From positions 38,183 through 102,182 of the IMG/VR virus record IMGVR_UViG_3300009709_000021: a stretch of 64,000 bases of DNA; one strand, written 5' to 3'. The position numbers and the translations under genes are program-made. The DNA comes from a virus. The notes below the pieces were generated by a model. The model was not told the origin of the DNA. It saw nothing but the letters and a program-made list of their open reading frames with translations, and made no database searches. Positions 2,601-38,774 of the stretch are shown in pieces (the first letter of the stretch is position 1; every line of letters starts with the position of its first letter).

Positions 2601-2900
2601 ATGACTGTCCGAGCAAAATTTACAGTTCAAAGCGTTACTCGGCAGCAAGGTAGCCGATACGTTCCTTCAAAAAATCCAGGGCATCATGGGACTTATGAGC
2701 CCTGTGAATTACTAACTATCAAGCTGAATCCGGTTTATGACCCTGAGCCTGGTAGTGAAAATCACGAGTTCTGGTCGGCCACTCCGAGTGGTAACATTGA
2801 ACTCGGCGTTGTCAAAGGCGAAACAGGTCGTTACTTTGAACTGGGTGCAGAATACTATATCGATTTCACTCGGGTTGGCGAAGAAGCTCCAGAGGGTTAA
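2601..2900 (+). CDS. conserved phage hypothetical protein
   Basis: MTVRAKF...EN..FW.ATPSG.IEL...F..G.EYYIDF pattern seen in many phage proteins; SD AAGGA. Confidence 0.75.
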   Translation: MTVRAKFTVQSVTRQQGSRYVPSKNPGHHGTYEPCELLTIKLNPVYDPEPGSENHEFWSATPSGNIELGVVKGETGRYFELGAEYYIDFTRVGEEAPEG

Positions 2901-2917
2901 ACAATTCGTTTAAACCT

Positions 2918-2960
2918 TGGTATTAGAAATATGGGAAGAAAGCTTAGGCTTATTCCTATT
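2918..2960 (+). promoter_or_regulatory. phage promoter motif TGGTATTAG plus leader hairpin
   Basis: Motif at 2918-2926, followed by imperfect inverted repeat GGGAA..AAGC-TTAG-GCTT.TTCCT. Confidence 0.65.
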
Positions 2961-2998
2961 GTTACGAATCACTTCTTTTTCGTAAACCGGGGGTCGAG

Positions 2999-3190
2999 AT
3001 GAGTCGCATCCAGAAAGTAACTGTGTATCACGAAGGCGTAGCTATTTGCGAAGATGAGTTCGGAAAGTTTCTTATCGAACATGCTAATGCAAAACTGACG
3101 CCTTTGCCGGAACCGAGAACATGCTATCTCACAGAACCGAAAGTGCTAACGCAACCTAGGAAATTTGAGGTAGAACTTGAAGTAGCGTAA
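2999..3190 (+). CDS. hypothetical protein
   Basis: 63-aa ORF with SD-like GGGGG, downstream of the promoter motif. Confidence 0.6.
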   Translation: MSRIQKVTVYHEGVAICEDEFGKFLIEHANAKLTPLPEPRTCYLTEPKVLTQPRKFEVELEVA

Positions 3191-3194
3191 CTGA

Positions 3195-3797
3195 TGTATT
3201 CCGGCGGCTGGTTTAGCGCCGGGCCCAATAAGTCTATCATAGCCTGATGTAACGGCCGACTGAGAAGCTACTTCTCGGAGAACTTGGCCCTCTTAGAATT
3301 CGGAAGAATTCACGAGGGGGAGTCCGACCAGTTATTGGGTTTTAAGAATTTGGGCGTAAGCCCTACCGCTTTAGTACTTTGCTTTACCTAACATAAGCAG
3401 TTAGGAGGATGCAGCTAGGAAGTAACTTCCTGGATATCTGCTTCCTGTCCTGTGGACAGGAGTACGACGGCCGCCGGCGAGCACTGGGTGAGCACATCTC
3501 CTCTAGAAGACGTCTGCAGGCGAGATCGGCGCATGAGTAAAGCGGTTTCATTTTCATAATTTGTTTTTATTTTCACGACAAGTATTTCGCTGTGTAATAT
3601 GTTTGCGGTATTATCGTATTACCGAGAATGCGGCTGGTAAGTACCTTGCCGGCGGGCGCTTTCTCCTTCTGCGAAGGAGAGGGCCGGGCCCATAATTATT
3701 AAAGTTATTAGTAGATGTAGATCTGGTCTCCAGGAAGAGCTGTATTTCCACGAGTTGTCGTAGCATTTGCATTTCCCCATTGGACGTTCCACGTCCC
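3195..3797 (+). ncRNA. candidate large structured non-coding RNA of unknown class
   Basis: No ORF in the track; GC-richer than flanks; long-range helices 3224-3231/3332-3339, 3365-3373/3538-3546, 3575-3581/3755-3761 enclose many hairpins; followed by an intrinsic terminator. Strand inferred from the promoter/terminator context. Confidence 0.65.
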
Positions 3798-3800
3798 TTT

Positions 3801-3826
3801 GCCGTTACTCGTTAGCGGCTTTTTTT
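3801..3826 (+). terminator. Rho-independent terminator
   Basis: GCCGTTA-CTCGT-TAGCGGC followed by T7. Confidence 0.8.
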
Positions 3827-3837
3827 AGTTGAATATT

Positions 3838-4839
3838 ATGTCTATTTTTGTACTTTATCACGCTAACTGTTTCGATGGCTTCGGGGCTAAATACGCCGCC
3901 TGGAGAAAATTTGGAAACAACGCTGAATACATTGCCGTAAATTACGGGCAGCCTCTCCCGAACATAAGCGGTATCACAACTTTAAGCAAGGTTGCGGTGG
4001 GAGAGCGGTATCAATTTGAAGCTCTGTCCCTTGTTAAAACGGAAGACTCTGAAACTACCCCTATTAATACTGGATTTGTAGAGATACCAAGATCTCCAAA
4101 TTCAATAGTAACTACGGAAGTTGATGTGTATATACTAGACTTTTCGTATCCACGGGATGTTTTAGAAGAATTACGTAAACGGGTCCGTACTTTAGTGGTA
4201 CTAGACCACCACAAAACTGCTCAAGAAGATCTCAAAGGTCTGGACTACGCCACATTTAACATGAACAAATCTGGTGCTGTCTTGGCTTGGGAATACTTTC
4301 ATCCAGATAAAGATGTTCCTTCAATCCTTTTGGATATTCAGGACGGCGATCTCTGGAAGTTTGAAAGACCTAACACAGAGAAAATTAGAGCAGCGTTGCC
4401 ATTGATTAAATTCGATCTCTTATCTCTGCATTCTTGTGCTATGTATGAAGACGACTACGAATGGCTCTTAGGTCAAGGAGAGTCTATTCTAACTTCTGAA
4501 AACGTTGAAATTAGTCACCGAGTACCTAAACATGTTCACAAAACTACTTTGTACGGCTACTCTTGTGGCTGTATTAATTGCACCACGCTCATCTCAAAAA
4601 CTGGCTCGGCTATTGTCAATGATGAAACCCTTAGAGTCGACGTTGCTTTAATGTATCAAATCATTGAAGATGGTAAAGTACTCCTTAGTTTTCGGGCTGC
4701 CAAAGACAATGACGTAGACGTTTCCGTTCTTGCCAAGGAATTCGGTGGTGGAGGTCACGCCAAAGCAGCGGGCGGAAGATGCTACCTTAAAACTCTACAA
4801 AATATTCTTGACGGTATACTTGACGGCAAATGCGCTTAA
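3838..4839 (+). CDS. DHH/DHHA1 family phosphoesterase
   Basis: YHANCFDG, ILDFSY, LDHH, KSGAVLAW, D.DLWKF, FGGGGHAKAAG; ATG 3838 preferred over TTG 3829. Confidence 0.93.
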   Translation: MSIFVLYHANCFDGFGAKYAAWRKFGNNAEYIAVNYGQPLPNISGITTLSKVAVGERYQFEALSLVKTEDSETTPINTGFVEIPRSPNSIVTTEVDVYILDFSYPRDVLEELRKRVRTLVVLDHHKTAQEDLKGLDYATFNMNKSGAVLAWEYFHPDKDVPSILLDIQDGDLWKFERPNTEKIRAALPLIKFDLLSLHSCAMYEDDYEWLLGQGESILTSENVEISHRVPKHVHKTTLYGYSCGCINCTTLISKTGSAIVNDETLRVDVALMYQIIEDGKVLLSFRAAKDNDVDVSVLAKEFGGGGHAKAAGGRCYLKTLQNILDGILDGKCA

Positions 4840-4848
4840 GTATAAAAT
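4820..4848 (+). promoter_or_regulatory. sigma70-type promoter
   Basis: TTGACG-17 bp-TAAAAT upstream of ORF 4866. Confidence 0.55.
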
Positions 4849-4865
4849 GAAATATTCCAATTACT

Positions 4866-5360
4866 ATGGAGGCCGAAATGGCTTTCTCATCAATTAGCGG
4901 CATCGACATTAATGAAGTTATATCCCCAGCGGGGGAGAATAGGCACATTGGCATTCCTTGGCCTACTAACGGAGGATTTAATAATGCTTACGAAGGACTT
5001 AGCCGCACCATAAATTCAAATGGAGTTGGTGCTGGCGACATTTTCCGAACTAATCCCAGTCCCTCTTTAGTATATTATGATAACGCTCCTAATGATCCGT
5101 ATACCTACGTCCAGAATATCCAGACCTTTAAGCAGAACGAGATTCAAATGGGCTCGTATTCTGTCAGTTATGTGAAAGAACTCGAAGCTGGTAAAGAAGA
5201 GGCTGAGATAAAGTATATGCTTCTTCATTCCAAAGTAATAGACTTATTGAAAGCAATTTCAAGAATGAAAACAATGCCAGAAGATTTTTTCGGCAGTCCG
5301 GCATCAGTAGTTATTTATATGGATTTACTTGTTAGTAGCGCAATTGGAGGTATCAAATGA
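4866..5360 (+). CDS. hypothetical protein
   Basis: 164-aa ORF (may start at ATG 4878 after GGAGG); ATGA overlap with the next gene. Confidence 0.65.
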   Translation: MEAEMAFSSISGIDINEVISPAGENRHIGIPWPTNGGFNNAYEGLSRTINSNGVGAGDIFRTNPSPSLVYYDNAPNDPYTYVQNIQTFKQNEIQMGSYSVSYVKELEAGKEEAEIKYMLLHSKVIDLLKAISRMKTMPEDFFGSPASVVIYMDLLVSSAIGGIK

Positions 5361-6223
5361 CAGTTGAAATAAAGACACTTACGCATTATTTGACGGAAAT
5401 GATCCATGTACAGGATGATTTAGGTCTTCGTCAAAACACGCATTGGCGTGAAAAAGATTGGGACTTCCGGCTTGCGGCAATCGAAGAAGTCATTGAAACA
5501 ATAGAGCATCTGAAATGGAAATGGTGGAAAAACTCAGATAATATTACTGAGAAAGACATTGATTGGGAAGCTGTTCATTATGAAGCAGCAGACGTGTTTA
5601 ACTTTTTGACAACATATTTGCTAAAAGAATGTAGCTACCACTCGGTGGTTCGGACCTTTGTTAAGAGCTATGAACGATCGTTAAGTGGGGATTTCCAATC
5701 TCCTTCGATTAAGAATGCATTGTCGTTTTCCAAAGATTTGATTGGTAGTCTGATCGGAAATCGGTTTGCGGAAGATGAATCTTATGCGACATACCAGGGG
5801 GAAGAATTGGCCCTCATGTATTTCAGATTTCTACATGCAGTTGGCCTTGATCCCGTTCGTCTTCGTGCTATTTATTTGGCAAAAGCAGAACTCAACATTT
5901 TCCGTTGGGAAAATGGAATGAAGGAAGGCACTTACATCAATGTTTGGAACGGTGTTAAAGACGATGTGTTCCTCAAGAAGATTGTCAATATGACAAATGA
6001 ACAGGATCCTAATTATCGTCAGCTCATTGCCCAAAGCATTGCTAATATCTATACCCAAGTAAAAGGTGAAGATATGACAATCCTTCATAAAGCCGCAAGT
6101 TCAGGTTTAAACCCTCAAGCTCGTGCTCAACAAATGCAGGTCTTACAAAAAACTCCTACGAAAGCTCCACGGCCTTCGCATGAAACGGAGAAAGGTTCTA
6201 CTCCACCTCCGGATGCTGCGTAA
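5357..6223 (+). CDS. dimeric (all-alpha) dUTPase-like protein with low-complexity C-terminal tail
   Basis: Q..L, EE..E.IEH..WKWWK, YEAADVFNF, YLAKAELNIFR, Y...WNG..D motifs of the dUTPase_2 family. Confidence 0.85.
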   Translation: MTVEIKTLTHYLTEMIHVQDDLGLRQNTHWREKDWDFRLAAIEEVIETIEHLKWKWWKNSDNITEKDIDWEAVHYEAADVFNFLTTYLLKECSYHSVVRTFVKSYERSLSGDFQSPSIKNALSFSKDLIGSLIGNRFAEDESYATYQGEELALMYFRFLHAVGLDPVRLRAIYLAKAELNIFRWENGMKEGTYINVWNGVKDDVFLKKIVNMTNEQDPNYRQLIAQSIANIYTQVKGEDMTILHKAASSGLNPQARAQQMQVLQKTPTKAPRPSHETEKGSTPPPDAA

Positions 6224-36623: not shown

Positions 36624-38774
36624 TTAGTTTCTGTATATTGCGTGTGCGATGCTACTGCCCGAACGATTAATAGGTACTGCAGTATTATTTTCATCTGTGT
36701 ATGACCCGACAGGGGCTCCGTCAGCATAATTTTGTCCACGAATTAGATAGTAGGGAACTCCTGTTCCGGCAAATCCACGGTTTATAGGGGCAGTCCAATT
36801 TACAGTTAACGAATCATTTTCCGCAATTGGATCACAGTAAGGCATATCATTAGATACATTCGTAGTTACCCAGTATATGCCTGCGTATACGTCTTCAATA
36901 CGAATTCCTAATAAATAATCTCCTGCTTGTATCTCAGATATATTAGGGGCATAAGTATCTGTCAAAGCCAAATCTGGGATATGTGCTCCCAGATAATAAA
37001 TGTTTGGGCCACGGAAAAATAGAGTTTCGTAATTTTCAGTGAGCTCAGTATAAGTATTCAATGAAGCAGTGTCGTCGATTGCAAACGTGTTAATAGCCTG
37101 ACTATTCGTCAGAGAGGGGATTTCAAATGTCCACTGAGTTAGAGGAGGAACATCCACTCCTGCTGCTGTACATTTTTGTTGGATATCATCCTGATTGGTT
37201 ATGTATAATGGAATTGCATACATACCAGATGGAAGATCCAAACAATTTACCGGCGTACCGGGTAAGCTATTCTGCGGCATCACCCCTCGATTGTATCCAG
37301 CTACACTACGGTTAATAGCCCAAATTTCTGAATCACGCCTCCAGATATTTTGAATCCAGGCTTGATCAGTAGCAGTAGGTGTTGTAAATTGCCCACGTGG
37401 ATTTCTCAATCCATTAATTTGGCCAAAATCCATAACCGGCTGGAAGGAGTTTACATAGGGGTTTGATCCTCCTAAAGATGTTACAAAGTAAGGAACATTC
37501 CAATGCAAAAAGTTAGGGCAGTCCCTGGTAATAGGGTTAATTGTATTTCCACGATAAAATTCCTGGATGGGTTGTGTTAAATGTTCACAGCGGGCTTGAT
37601 AAATATCTATTGAAAAATCATCATCAGATAATGTCAAAGTTTCATTTAAACCCTGAACAGACCAGATATAAATTGCTTTTGTGTACGTCGGTTTAACACG
37701 TTGAATAACATCGAAAACTGTCGAAAAGTTTTGAATGTCTTTAAAATTAGCAACTTCGATATTGATTAAGAATGTATGAGTCTTTAAATAATTTCTCATT
37801 AAATAATCAAATTGAGATCCCGATGTTGCATAACGGTTATCTTGACCAGGTGGAAGGTAAGGAATAACTGACGAGGGAATATACAAATTTAACCACCAAT
37901 CTCCATCTTCTTGGTAGTCTTTAACCTGAAGCCAGCTTGATAAAGGTTCCCCGACACTCAAAGCATCCCCTACCGATACCGAGGGCGGCAAACCGTAAGG
38001 AATAATATATTGATTTTGATTCGTAATGACAATGTATTCCCCTGTTTGCAAGTACTCACGGATATCCAAAACTGTCTCGGCATCACGCGCAAGAGGAATT
38101 CCCAAGACTAAATTTAAGCCACTTTGTACAAGTGAAAGCTTAGGTCCTTGGGTATACATATAATACAAACCATATACAAGATTGTAGAAATTATCCGTAG
38201 ATGTTTCTGGGCTTATGGCGATGAGATCAGCATAGTATGTGCTAATAAGTTCTTCATCGATATTTGCGTCTACAAACCAGAGGGCGTATTGGGTATTGCC
38301 GGATGAATCGGCACGAACCGAAAATCCAGCATCGGTGATAGATCTTGCGAAAACGATTTGAAGTTGGCCAGCAGTTGTAGTTTGAATAGCAAAATCTACA
38401 TTCTGTTCCCATAGAGTTGTTGGGAGGAATGGTCTATTAGCTATATATCTAGCCGATTGAACACTGATCGGCAATGTATAAGTATTTTCAGAACCTACAA
38501 CTTGACTGTTTGCTTCTAACAAAACAAGCTTTATGCTAGAGCCTATTGTTTCTTGTATTGACTCAAGACTGATTGTTGAAGCATACTGCAAAAAACGGCT
38601 GTACACATCAGATGCGTATTCAGCCTCTGCTTCCAGCATTAAGTTTACAGTTTCTGAATCTTCAAAAATAGTATGGAAAAAATCACTAAGGCCATATAAT
38701 GCAACCATGTTGACATTGTTTTGACCAATAGCAAGGCCATTTGTTGTGAAATTAGCACGAGGATTCAATGCCAT
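36624..38774 (-). CDS. baseplate wedge protein
   Basis: 716 aa, directly downstream of the J-like gene; GP.L..V..GLN..LG and R.KP.YT motifs. Confidence 0.65.
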   Translation of the reverse strand: MALNPRANFTTNGLAIGQNNVNMVALYGLSDFFHTIFEDSETVNLMLEAEAEYASDVYSRFLQYASTISLESIQETIGSSIKLVLLEANSQVVGSENTYTLPISVQSARYIANRPFLPTTLWEQNVDFAIQTTTAGQLQIVFARSITDAGFSVRADSSGNTQYALWFVDANIDEELISTYYADLIAISPETSTDNFYNLVYGLYYMYTQGPKLSLVQSGLNLVLGIPLARDAETVLDIREYLQTGEYIVITNQNQYIIPYGLPPSVSVGDALSVGEPLSSWLQVKDYQEDGDWWLNLYIPSSVIPYLPPGQDNRYATSGSQFDYLMRNYLKTHTFLINIEVANFKDIQNFSTVFDVIQRVKPTYTKAIYIWSVQGLNETLTLSDDDFSIDIYQARCEHLTQPIQEFYRGNTINPITRDCPNFLHWNVPYFVTSLGGSNPYVNSFQPVMDFGQINGLRNPRGQFTTPTATDQAWIQNIWRRDSEIWAINRSVAGYNRGVMPQNSLPGTPVNCLDLPSGMYAIPLYITNQDDIQQKCTAAGVDVPPLTQWTFEIPSLTNSQAINTFAIDDTASLNTYTELTENYETLFFRGPNIYYLGAHIPDLALTDTYAPNISEIQAGDYLLGIRIEDVYAGIYWVTTNVSNDMPYCDPIAENDSLTVNWTAPINRGFAGTGVPYYLIRGQNYADGAPVGSYTDENNTAVPINRSGSSIAHAIYRN

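Follow-up and report, generated by a model that had tools for sequence, protein, structure and literature searches.

The locus

This analysis concerns the largest gap in a 64,000-nt stretch of phage DNA, which we call the window. It is positions 38,183 to 102,182 of IMG/VR record IMGVR_UViG_3300009709_000021. That record is a 102-kb linear sequence with a CheckV completeness estimate of 77%, and the window is its right 64 kb. The gap spans 3191-3828 and contains zero open reading frames (ORFs) of at least 60 aa. We argue that it probably encodes, on the + strand, three tandem paralogous structured RNA modules of ~115-190 nt that have no Rfam family and whose role would be in RNA metabolism.

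The gap lies in a block of + strand genes. In order, these are an NT5C 5'-nucleotidase, YqeY, an HTH protein, a 99-aa ORF, a 63-aa ORF, the gap, a DHH/DHHA1 phosphoesterase and a dUTPase_2 protein. The genes around the gap are those of nucleotide and RNA metabolism, and all of them are on the + strand, like the promoter motif and the terminator described below. The initial annotation, made from the letters of the window, had singled out this ~640-nt space as ORF-free in dense surroundings, downstream of a promoter motif at 2918 and a 63-aa ORF and ending at a terminator. Sequence, motif count and terminator call all agree with that description. The phage terminase is at most 47% identical to any terminase of a cultured phage, the nearest being those of Salmonella phage Arash and some Vibrio phages. 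A moss metagenome contains the phage sequence and may be the source of the phage.

The composition of the gap resembles that of RNA genes. Its G+C is 0.49, compared with 0.37-0.41 in gaps mostly without tRNA genes and 0.48-0.53 in gaps that are largely tRNA genes. Perfect hairpins of 6 bp with a 3-nt loop number 48 in the genome, and 5 of them fall in these 640 nt, where ~0.3 would be expected from 0.63% of the genome. We dismissed small translated ORFs as the content of the gap, because the short ORFs on either strand, which are Arg-rich, have no ribosome-binding sites and no homologues.

Three copies of one module

Each module is closed by a long-range helix, P1, formed from its own ends. 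The three units (D1, D2 and D3) and the hairpins and linkers around them are as follows.

3201-3222, + strand: hairpin H0 (CCGGCG...CGCCGG), G+C-rich, between the ORF stop and D1, no U tract after it; pair probability 0.7
3224-3339, + strand: unit D1, 116 nt, short and divergent; P1 is CCCAATAA (3224-3231) with TTATTGGG (3332-3339), 8 bp
3352-3363, + strand: linker hairpin GGGC-GTAA-GCCC between D1 and D2; pair probability 0.66
3365-3546, + strand: unit D2, 182 nt; P1 is ACCGCTTTA (3365-3373) with TAAAGCGGT (3538-3546), 9 bp
3547-3574, + strand: A+U-rich, single-stranded linker between D2 and D3, with a short direct repeat (TTTCATTTTCA/TTTTATTTTCA)
3575-3761, + strand: unit D3, 187 nt; P1 is ACGACAA (3575-3581) with TTGTCGT (3755-3761), 7 bp
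3782-3796, + strand: hairpin GGACGT-TCC-ACGTCC, ahead of the terminator

The common plan starts with P1, whose 5' arm is followed by GUA. Then come a small hairpin, H1 (a triloop hairpin, ..AG-NNN-CU..) and another hairpin, H2, and CAYGAG stands directly ahead of the 3' arm. In all three units P1 has at least 7 pairs made by the unit's ends, 110-250 nt apart. A triloop H1 of at least 6 pairs with the AG-NNN-CU core lies 10-75 nt past P1 at 3260-3278, 3415-3433 and 3634-3652. The junction letters GUA and YAYGAG flank P1 in D2 and D3, but not in D1. The units lie on the gene strand between the gene of a ~65-aa protein and the DHH gene. D2 has GTA at 3374-3376, the small hairpin at 3387-3405, H1 at 3415-3433, H2 at 3443-3461 and CATGAG at 3532-3537. 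In D3 the same parts are GTA at 3582-3584, the small hairpin at 3606-3624, H1 at 3634-3652 (CTGGTAAG-TAC-CTTGCCGG), H2 at 3662-3680 and CACGAG at 3749-3754. In D1 the 5' arm is followed by GUC and the 3' arm is preceded by GACCAG; H1 is at 3260-3278 (CTGAGAAG-CTA-CTTCTCGG), and a branched hairpin with a GGAA loop is at 3288-3318 (inner hairpin 3296-3311). The helices and hairpins that the initial annotation quoted are all present, shifted by at most 2 nt. Its three domains closed by long-range helices can now be described as paralogous copies of one module, which recurs syntenically in distant relatives.

The paralogy of D2 and D3 can be read from an alignment. Local alignment of the halves of the gap matches 3378-3478 to 3602-3689, and the two units can be aligned over H1, an 8-nt linker, H2 and both P1 junctions. 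The flanks of P1 align as GTAYTTYGCT after the 5' arm and CAYGAGT before the 3' arm. The arms of P1 are unrelated in sequence between D2 and D3, and each pair is fully complementary. H1 is CTAGGAAG-TAA-CTTCCTGG in D2, and it differs from the D3 hairpin by A-U to G-C and G-C to U.G changes that keep the pairing. H2 is an 8-9-bp hairpin with a UGY triloop, with four compensatory double changes between the copies. D1 is a shorter, divergent copy with the same type of H1. A fourth, short unit is found 34 kb upstream at L148:6946-7063 (genome coordinates), shortly before the promoter motif at genome 7073. Its P1 (TTCAC/GTGAA) is weak, it has GTA, its H1 (CTAGGAAG-TTA-CTTCCTGG) is almost the same as the D2 hairpin, and the D1-like GACCAG precedes the 3' arm. 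All four H1 copies in the phage genome have a U.G at one fixed place.

The module in distant relatives

The loci of relatives (L-numbers) are those of DHH homologues from IMG/VR and metagenomes, among the matches listed. Since they were drawn by DHH similarity, the link between the module and DHH is biased. The DHH proteins of these relatives are only 37-40% identical to that of the window. By protein comparison L101, L105 and L106/L107 have NT5C or HTH genes upstream of DHH and dUTPase_2 downstream. A homologue of the 63-aa ORF comes directly before the units or the gap in L101, L106, L105, L103, L102 and L016. In each of these 650-1300 nt without credible genes separate the small ORF from DHH, and in L102 and L103 that gap also has a tRNA gene. 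The gaps of L101/L104 and L106/L107 have common blocks of 14-25 identical bases split by variable parts.

The unit architecture occurs 1-3 times per contig in about nine distantly related phage contigs, mostly between the homologue of the 63-aa ORF and DHH. Across these contigs, 15 units have the layout P1-GUAY...YAYGAG-P1', with 11 different P1 sequences. In L101/L106 the P1 arms, at first taken for promoter boxes, read TGTTCAC-GTATAAGA...CATGAG-GTGAACA, and the next unit reads TGTTCGT-GTATGGAA...CATGAG-ACGAACA with the same junction letters. The L102 unit is ACGTTAA-GTATAAC...CATGAG-TTAACGT. Looser members, with the layout P1-GUA...GAG-P1' and similar arms, are found in L103, L105 (two), L016 and L020.

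L018 deserves separate mention. It was found by a first simple descriptor (P1 arms, GT and CAYGAG) before its sequence had been examined. It has the units as a package: a TGGTATAAC promoter, two tandem units and a terminator with the tail TTTTTTTAGTTCC. Scans of IMG/VR for a promoter-like block with H1, for the H1 palindrome of the window, and for H1 with YAYGAG returned the same four contigs and unrelated matches. L106 (3675-3815) and L101 (2103-2240) have another common structured segment, CTGTGGGGTGTA...GGCCTAAGAGCGCACCTT..., between the small ORF and the first unit, with a terminator at its end; the window has only H0 there.

Statistical support for the structure

The module, as defined from the relatives L018, L101/L104 and L106/L107, was written as a strict descriptor. 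It asks for a P1 of at least 6 pairs whose 5' arm is directly followed by GT and whose 3' arm is directly preceded by YAYGAG, with an AG-NNN-CU triloop hairpin no more than 75 nt in. Run on both strands of 2.75 Mb of collected loci plus the genome, it gives 12 matches, none of them outside these gaps or off the gene strand. In reversed sequence it gives 0. Within the genome of the window it matches D2 and D3 only; a dinucleotide-shuffled genome gives 0.033 matches on average, and 3000 shuffles of the region gave one. A relaxed descriptor (P1, GTA and GAG only) does no better than its control, with 83 matches against 86, and was used as a lead only.

The initial annotation had proposed looking for covariation in homologues from related phages, and both P1 and H1 do covary. 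Each of the ten units first tested, when folded singly and unconstrained, closes by P1 around a 4-5-way junction of the small hairpin, H1, H2 and 1-2 further arms. D1, D2 and D3 are among them. Given the six units of L018, L101 and L106, RNAalifold recovers P1 and H1 unprompted, together with one more U-A pair that joins GUA to GAG; 10 of the 19 pairs it predicts have compensatory changes. In nine units, D2 and D3 included, P1 is paired in 100% of cells and both sides have changed in 7 of its 8 pairs, counts that are partly by construction since the units were picked for P1 complementarity. The weight therefore rests on the fixed junction letters and the descriptor controls. H1 is 90% paired in the same units, none of 500 shuffles reaches the observed values, and slid controls are at most 52% paired. 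Where P1 and H1 of eight well-aligned units depart from Watson-Crick pairing, the cells are 6 G.U and 0 A.C. This bias and the invariant U.G point to an RNA made from the + strand, rather than to a DNA palindrome or a - strand RNA.

RNA, DNA or nothing

Several observations weigh against three RNA modules, and they should be taken together. Neither junction motif is present in D1. The window had been seen before the descriptor took its final shape, which it partly influenced, and the choice of units by P1 complementarity builds part of the P1 counts in. A covariance model (R1) built from the relatives only has D2 as its top match with exact ends, at a weak 11.7 bits (E 0.11), and misses D3; misalignment of the variable interior by MAFFT makes this a poor model. 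The whole-region ensemble gives the D1 closure a probability of 0.73, compared with 0.07 for D2 and 0.01 for D3, so the closing stems of D2 and D3 are not favoured. Their support is from paralogues and relatives and not from energy. In any case 640 nt should contain single long-range complements of 7-9 nt by chance. Folding of the whole region has a z-score of -2.9 on the + strand and -5.6 on the - strand, and energy alone is weak evidence for the structure. Queried by blastn and nhmmer with the gap region and the L106 element, the collected loci and the genome show no homology beyond the terminator tail, so the units of the window and those of the relatives have no sequence-level homology. 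Close relatives supply no covariation, because the one independent near-identical contig (X2) has no substitution across 3089-5646. By protein there are closer relatives than those used above, with DHH at 60-63% identity (P0002-P0005) and the small protein at 78-90% (P0121-P0123). Among the sequencing runs on record that contain the stretch there is no RNA run. The partners and the role proposed below are drawn from the gene neighbourhood only.

Some of the contrary evidence belongs to a specific alternative, that the region acts as DNA. The palindromes would then serve the nearby HTH protein (2334-2591) or some other DNA-binding protein as operators, or the hairpins would make up a replication origin or a signal for single-strand initiation. 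As a palindrome of 19 bp, H1 is nearly perfect, and almost the same sequence (CTAGGAAGTWACTTCCTGG) is present at 3415 and at genome 6983, the latter just upstream of a promoter. This near identity within one genome would fit a DNA operator too, and the H1 copies share sequence within each relative as well. The same palindrome (TAGGAAGTTACTTCCTG) sits exactly between the TTGCAA and TATAAT boxes of a sigma-70-like promoter in an unrelated IMG/VR phage contig (L162:5189-5205), which is a further point against an RNA. The HTH gene is syntenic, the A+T-rich tract at 3547-3575 has short direct repeats, and the folding z-scores do not favour the + strand over the - strand. However, operators leave the P1 helices unexplained: their arms are 110-190 nt apart, covary fully and stand beside fixed junction letters. 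Nor do operators explain the compensatory changes in H2, the asymmetry of G.U and A.C with the invariant U.G, or the packaging of promoter, units and terminator in L018. The G+C is also raised as in RNA genes. We consider a role of the region as DNA quite improbable, though H1 by itself may act as an operator.

Another possibility is that the gap has no function. It could be a decayed gene, a duplicated spacer whose hairpins do nothing, or a set of small translated ORFs. The missing sequence conservation with relatives and the missing RNA run count in favour of this scenario, and internal short repeats hint at duplication and rearrangement. But an architecture that is kept at the same slot in contigs whose DHH proteins are so far diverged is hard to reconcile with decay, as are the enrichment of hairpins and the descriptor statistics. 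The short ORFs are those dismissed above. We give this scenario very little credence.

Flanking elements and the leader alternative

The units are bounded by a promoter-like motif and the 63-aa ORF on one side and by a terminator and the DHH gene on the other.

2918-2926, + strand: phage promoter-like motif TGGTATTAG, which would drive the 63-aa ORF and the RNA units
2999-3190, + strand: 63-aa ORF directly upstream of the RNA units, a conserved partner gene
3801-3826, + strand: intrinsic terminator GCCGTTA-CTCGT-TAGCGGC followed by T7; pair probability 0.84
3838-4839, + strand: DHH/DHHA1 phosphoesterase gene, NrnB-like (Pfam DHHA1, PHROG 4771)

The motif TGGTATTAG has 8 exact copies in the window, all on the + strand, where 1.06 would be expected. 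The genome has 17 copies on the + strand, and after every one of them come A-rich sequence and a purine-rich 5' hairpin. There are no copies inside 3191-3837. The sites in the window are 2242, 2918, 6267, 6648, 8539, 54724, 55113 and 59129, and nine further sites are in the upstream genome. The extended motif, TGGTATAAG-AAAGTT-(purine-rich hairpin), is intergenic and on the + strand only, and the relatives use TGGTATAAC. It fits a phage-specific promoter whose transcripts have structured 5' ends.

The 63-aa protein belongs to a family of ~65-aa proteins with 83 representatives (E at most 1e-3) among 1.84 billion proteins. It has no Pfam family, no PHROG family and no homologue in cultured phages. 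Its AF2 prediction is a four-strand beta meander (pLDDT 66), and no fold in the PDB matches the model. The homologues of the DHH protein are named NrnB-like oligoribonuclease or phosphodiesterase in their sources. The tail of the window terminator, TTTTTTTAGTTGAA, resembles the tails in L106, L101 and L018.

The DHH gene starts 12 nt past the T tract of the terminator. It has no TGGTATWAG motif and no Shine-Dalgarno sequence, whereas the relatives have a promoter and AAGGAGG there. Its expression here must rely on read-through or on an unusual start. In another scenario the region is a cis-acting leader of DHH, with 2-3 tandem aptamer-like domains (a riboswitch or a protein-binding attenuator) controlling read-through at 3801-3826. 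Tandem homologous domains closed by P1, then an intrinsic terminator, then at once a gene with neither promoter motif nor Shine-Dalgarno sequence is the arrangement such a leader would have, and the units are linked to DHH in most relatives. Tandem riboswitch aptamers, e.g. the glycine riboswitch, have the same order of 2-3 homologous P1-closed junction domains, a terminator and a gene (PMC9481103). However, in L101, L104 and L106 one or two terminators and then a TGGTATAAC promoter lie between the units and DHH. The L018 units, with a promoter and a terminator of their own, precede a Ro60 gene, and DHH is 4 kb off. The units of relatives are thus transcription units of their own. A riboswitch-like leader is unlikely because a terminator and promoter, or another gene, part the units from DHH in relatives. 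The 3' arm of the D3 P1 is not complementary to the terminator, and no expression platform that overlaps P1 is seen. Units of 160-190 nt are large for aptamers, and no riboswitch family in Rfam matches them.

Known RNA classes

The Rfam scan suggested by the initial annotation was run, and it matched no family. Rfam 15 finds nothing in the window at the gathering score. On 2850-3950 at E of at most 10 it gives only two chance-level matches to terminator-like sRNAs, at 3753-3834. ARAGORN finds no tRNA or tmRNA in the window. The Rfam models for RNase P, group I/II introns, small ribozymes and GOLLD/ROOL/raiA/OLE have no match on the window or on 2850-3950. The earlier failure to match the region to tRNA, tmRNA, RNase P or a known ribozyme thus agrees with Rfam and ARAGORN. 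Searching by blastn with the region against 50,697 phage records (cultured phages) finds no similar DNA, and in the literature we found no description of this module.

Other readings were tried and rejected. A hammerhead-like reading of GUA and CUGAUG has no support in Rfam. A CsrB-like decoy would be rich in GGA, and GGA is not enriched (12 seen, about 10 expected). The antitoxin role raised in the initial annotation is unsupported. A type III antitoxin RNA (ToxI-like) consists of ~36-nt head-to-tail direct repeats that adjoin the gene of an endoribonuclease toxin. The gap has no such tandem repeats, its units are 116-187 nt and differ in sequence, and no ToxN-like gene is seen near them in the Pfam/PHROG annotation.

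GOLLD and ROOL, large ornate RNAs associated with phages, are among the nearest known systems (Rfam; bioRxiv 10.1101/2024.12.08.627333). Like the units they are phage-borne structured noncoding RNAs, often near tRNA genes and known only comparatively, and the gap of L102/L103 has a tRNA gene. Unlike them, the units are repeated ~180-nt modules and not one fold of 600-800 nt, have other conserved letters, are linked to a small protein gene and DHH, and match nothing in Rfam. Species 1 and 2 of the phage T4 tRNA region (the band C and D RNAs) are stable structured RNAs of unknown role that are co-transcribed in RNA gene clusters and released by processing. The units may be comparable to them. 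Unlike those species, the units of the window are not adjacent to the phage tRNA genes, all seven of which are outside the window. We regard the module as a new family among the structured RNAs that phages are already known to carry.

The genome has other ORF-free stretches, noted here in their own right. Genome 37045-37752 (window -1137 to -430) is another large gap, of 708 nt, with a G+C of 0.38 and no ORF of at least 60 aa on a simple ORF map. At L148:17548-17846 there are 299 nt without an ORF, with a G+C of 0.49, no Rfam match and two hairpins with the common loop GAATAGT; this could be a small RNA. Another possible small RNA is a ~165-nt G+C-rich ORF-free stretch at L149:7586-7752 (genome 26586-26752), without an Rfam match, directly after tRNA-Pro and downstream of Ro60.

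Ro60 and Y RNAs

The phage has a gene for a Ro60-like protein (TROVE, 57 bits in sum) at L149:5328-6725 (genome 24328-25725), 16 kb from the units. Directly upstream of it are two YrlA-like tRNA-like modules, at L149:4722-4789 and L149:5133-5199, which score 26 and 36 bits, below the Rfam cut-off of 69. The whole span, genome 23722-25725, is upstream of the window. This is a Ro60/Y RNA pair of known kind. It is worth asking, then, whether the units are divergent Y RNAs that tether the phage Ro60 to an effector nuclease. L018 speaks for this. Within 2.7 kb it has a YrlA-like RNA (319-433), a T-arm-like piece (618-679), two units (738-1106) and a Ro60 gene (1140-2831, TROVE and vWA_Ro60). Its units are directly upstream of Ro60, with DHH 4 kb downstream.

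The general design is also similar. Bacterial Y RNAs have a stem made from the two ends and a variable effector module, occur several per genome, are usually 80-130 nt, and have the Rsr-binding motif GNCGAAN0-1G near the 5' end (Chen et al. 2014, PMC4201824). YrlA/YrlB RNAs (RF02553; PMC4201824) are, like the units, modular, with an end-formed closing stem round a variable multi-hairpin module. They come in several copies per genome, often in tandem and processed from one precursor, and in phages they are near tRNA and RNA-metabolism genes.

However, the phage already has two YrlA-like modules at its Ro60, far from the units. The YrlA model (RF02553) has no match on 2850-3950 at E of at most 10, while the same model matches the two modules elsewhere in the genome and one in L018. 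The motif GNCGAAN0-1G does not occur in 3191-3830. The units have no tRNA-like T and D arms, at 160-190 nt they exceed the usual size, and the GUA and CAYGAG letters are not features of Y RNAs. Proximity to a Ro60/rsr gene, taken as about 2 kb, holds for the units of L018 only and not for those of the window. Most carriers have no Ro60: no TROVE gene was found in the records of L101, L102, L105 and L106 or in the complete 169.7-kb L103 genome. This phage and L018 do encode one. We have not filed the units as Y RNAs because the YrlA features and the GNCGAAN0-1G motif are absent and five other carriers have no TROVE gene. That the units are divergent Y RNAs seems to us very improbable.

A model and its meaning

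We argue that the gap is best explained by three copies of a structured RNA. Each copy would be a multi-way junction closed by a 7-9-bp P1 from its own ends, with GUA and CAYGAG flanking P1 and the small hairpin, H1 and H2 inside. The fixed GUA and GAG beside P1 could form a loop-E or bulged-G-like platform. Transcription would start from the promoter motif at 2918, run through the 63-aa ORF and the units, and stop at the terminator at 3801-3826. The units may then be cut in the A+U-rich linkers into stable small RNAs, much as the initial annotation had suggested with its three processed RNAs, and the linker between D2 and D3 is a candidate processing site. As to role, a stable protein-binding scaffold or decoy RNA in RNA metabolism would be our best guess. 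The 63-aa protein would be a candidate partner, perhaps in one particle with the RNA, and the DHH nuclease or the phage Ro60 may be the functional context.

One can go further by analogy with Ro60/Y RNA particles. The units, the beta-rich ~65-aa protein and DHH may make up a previously unknown phage ribonucleoprotein module. Its RNAs, closed by P1 and bearing a GUA/GAG platform similar to loop E, would bind the small protein, and would tether the nuclease or regulate it. The particle would reshape host RNA turnover, or trap a host RNA-binding factor of defence or quality control. We offer this as a possible but doubtful scenario.

To our knowledge phages have few structured RNAs besides tRNAs, and almost none of these has a known role. 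The module described here is compact and repeatable at ~180 nt, it covaries, it has fixed junction letters and a conserved small-protein neighbour, and it is directly testable. Its context is RNA metabolism, with an NrnB-like DHH enzyme, YqeY and nucleotide enzymes nearby, tRNA genes elsewhere, and Ro60 with Y RNAs in two lineages. As it stands it is a candidate family for RNA libraries, and it accounts for the long "empty" gaps that precede DHH in one group of uncultured phages. If the RNA is a sensor or a ribozyme, it would be a new class. If it is a scaffold or decoy, it would be a second RNA-based system, beside the Y RNAs, by which phages handle host RNA turnover or defence.

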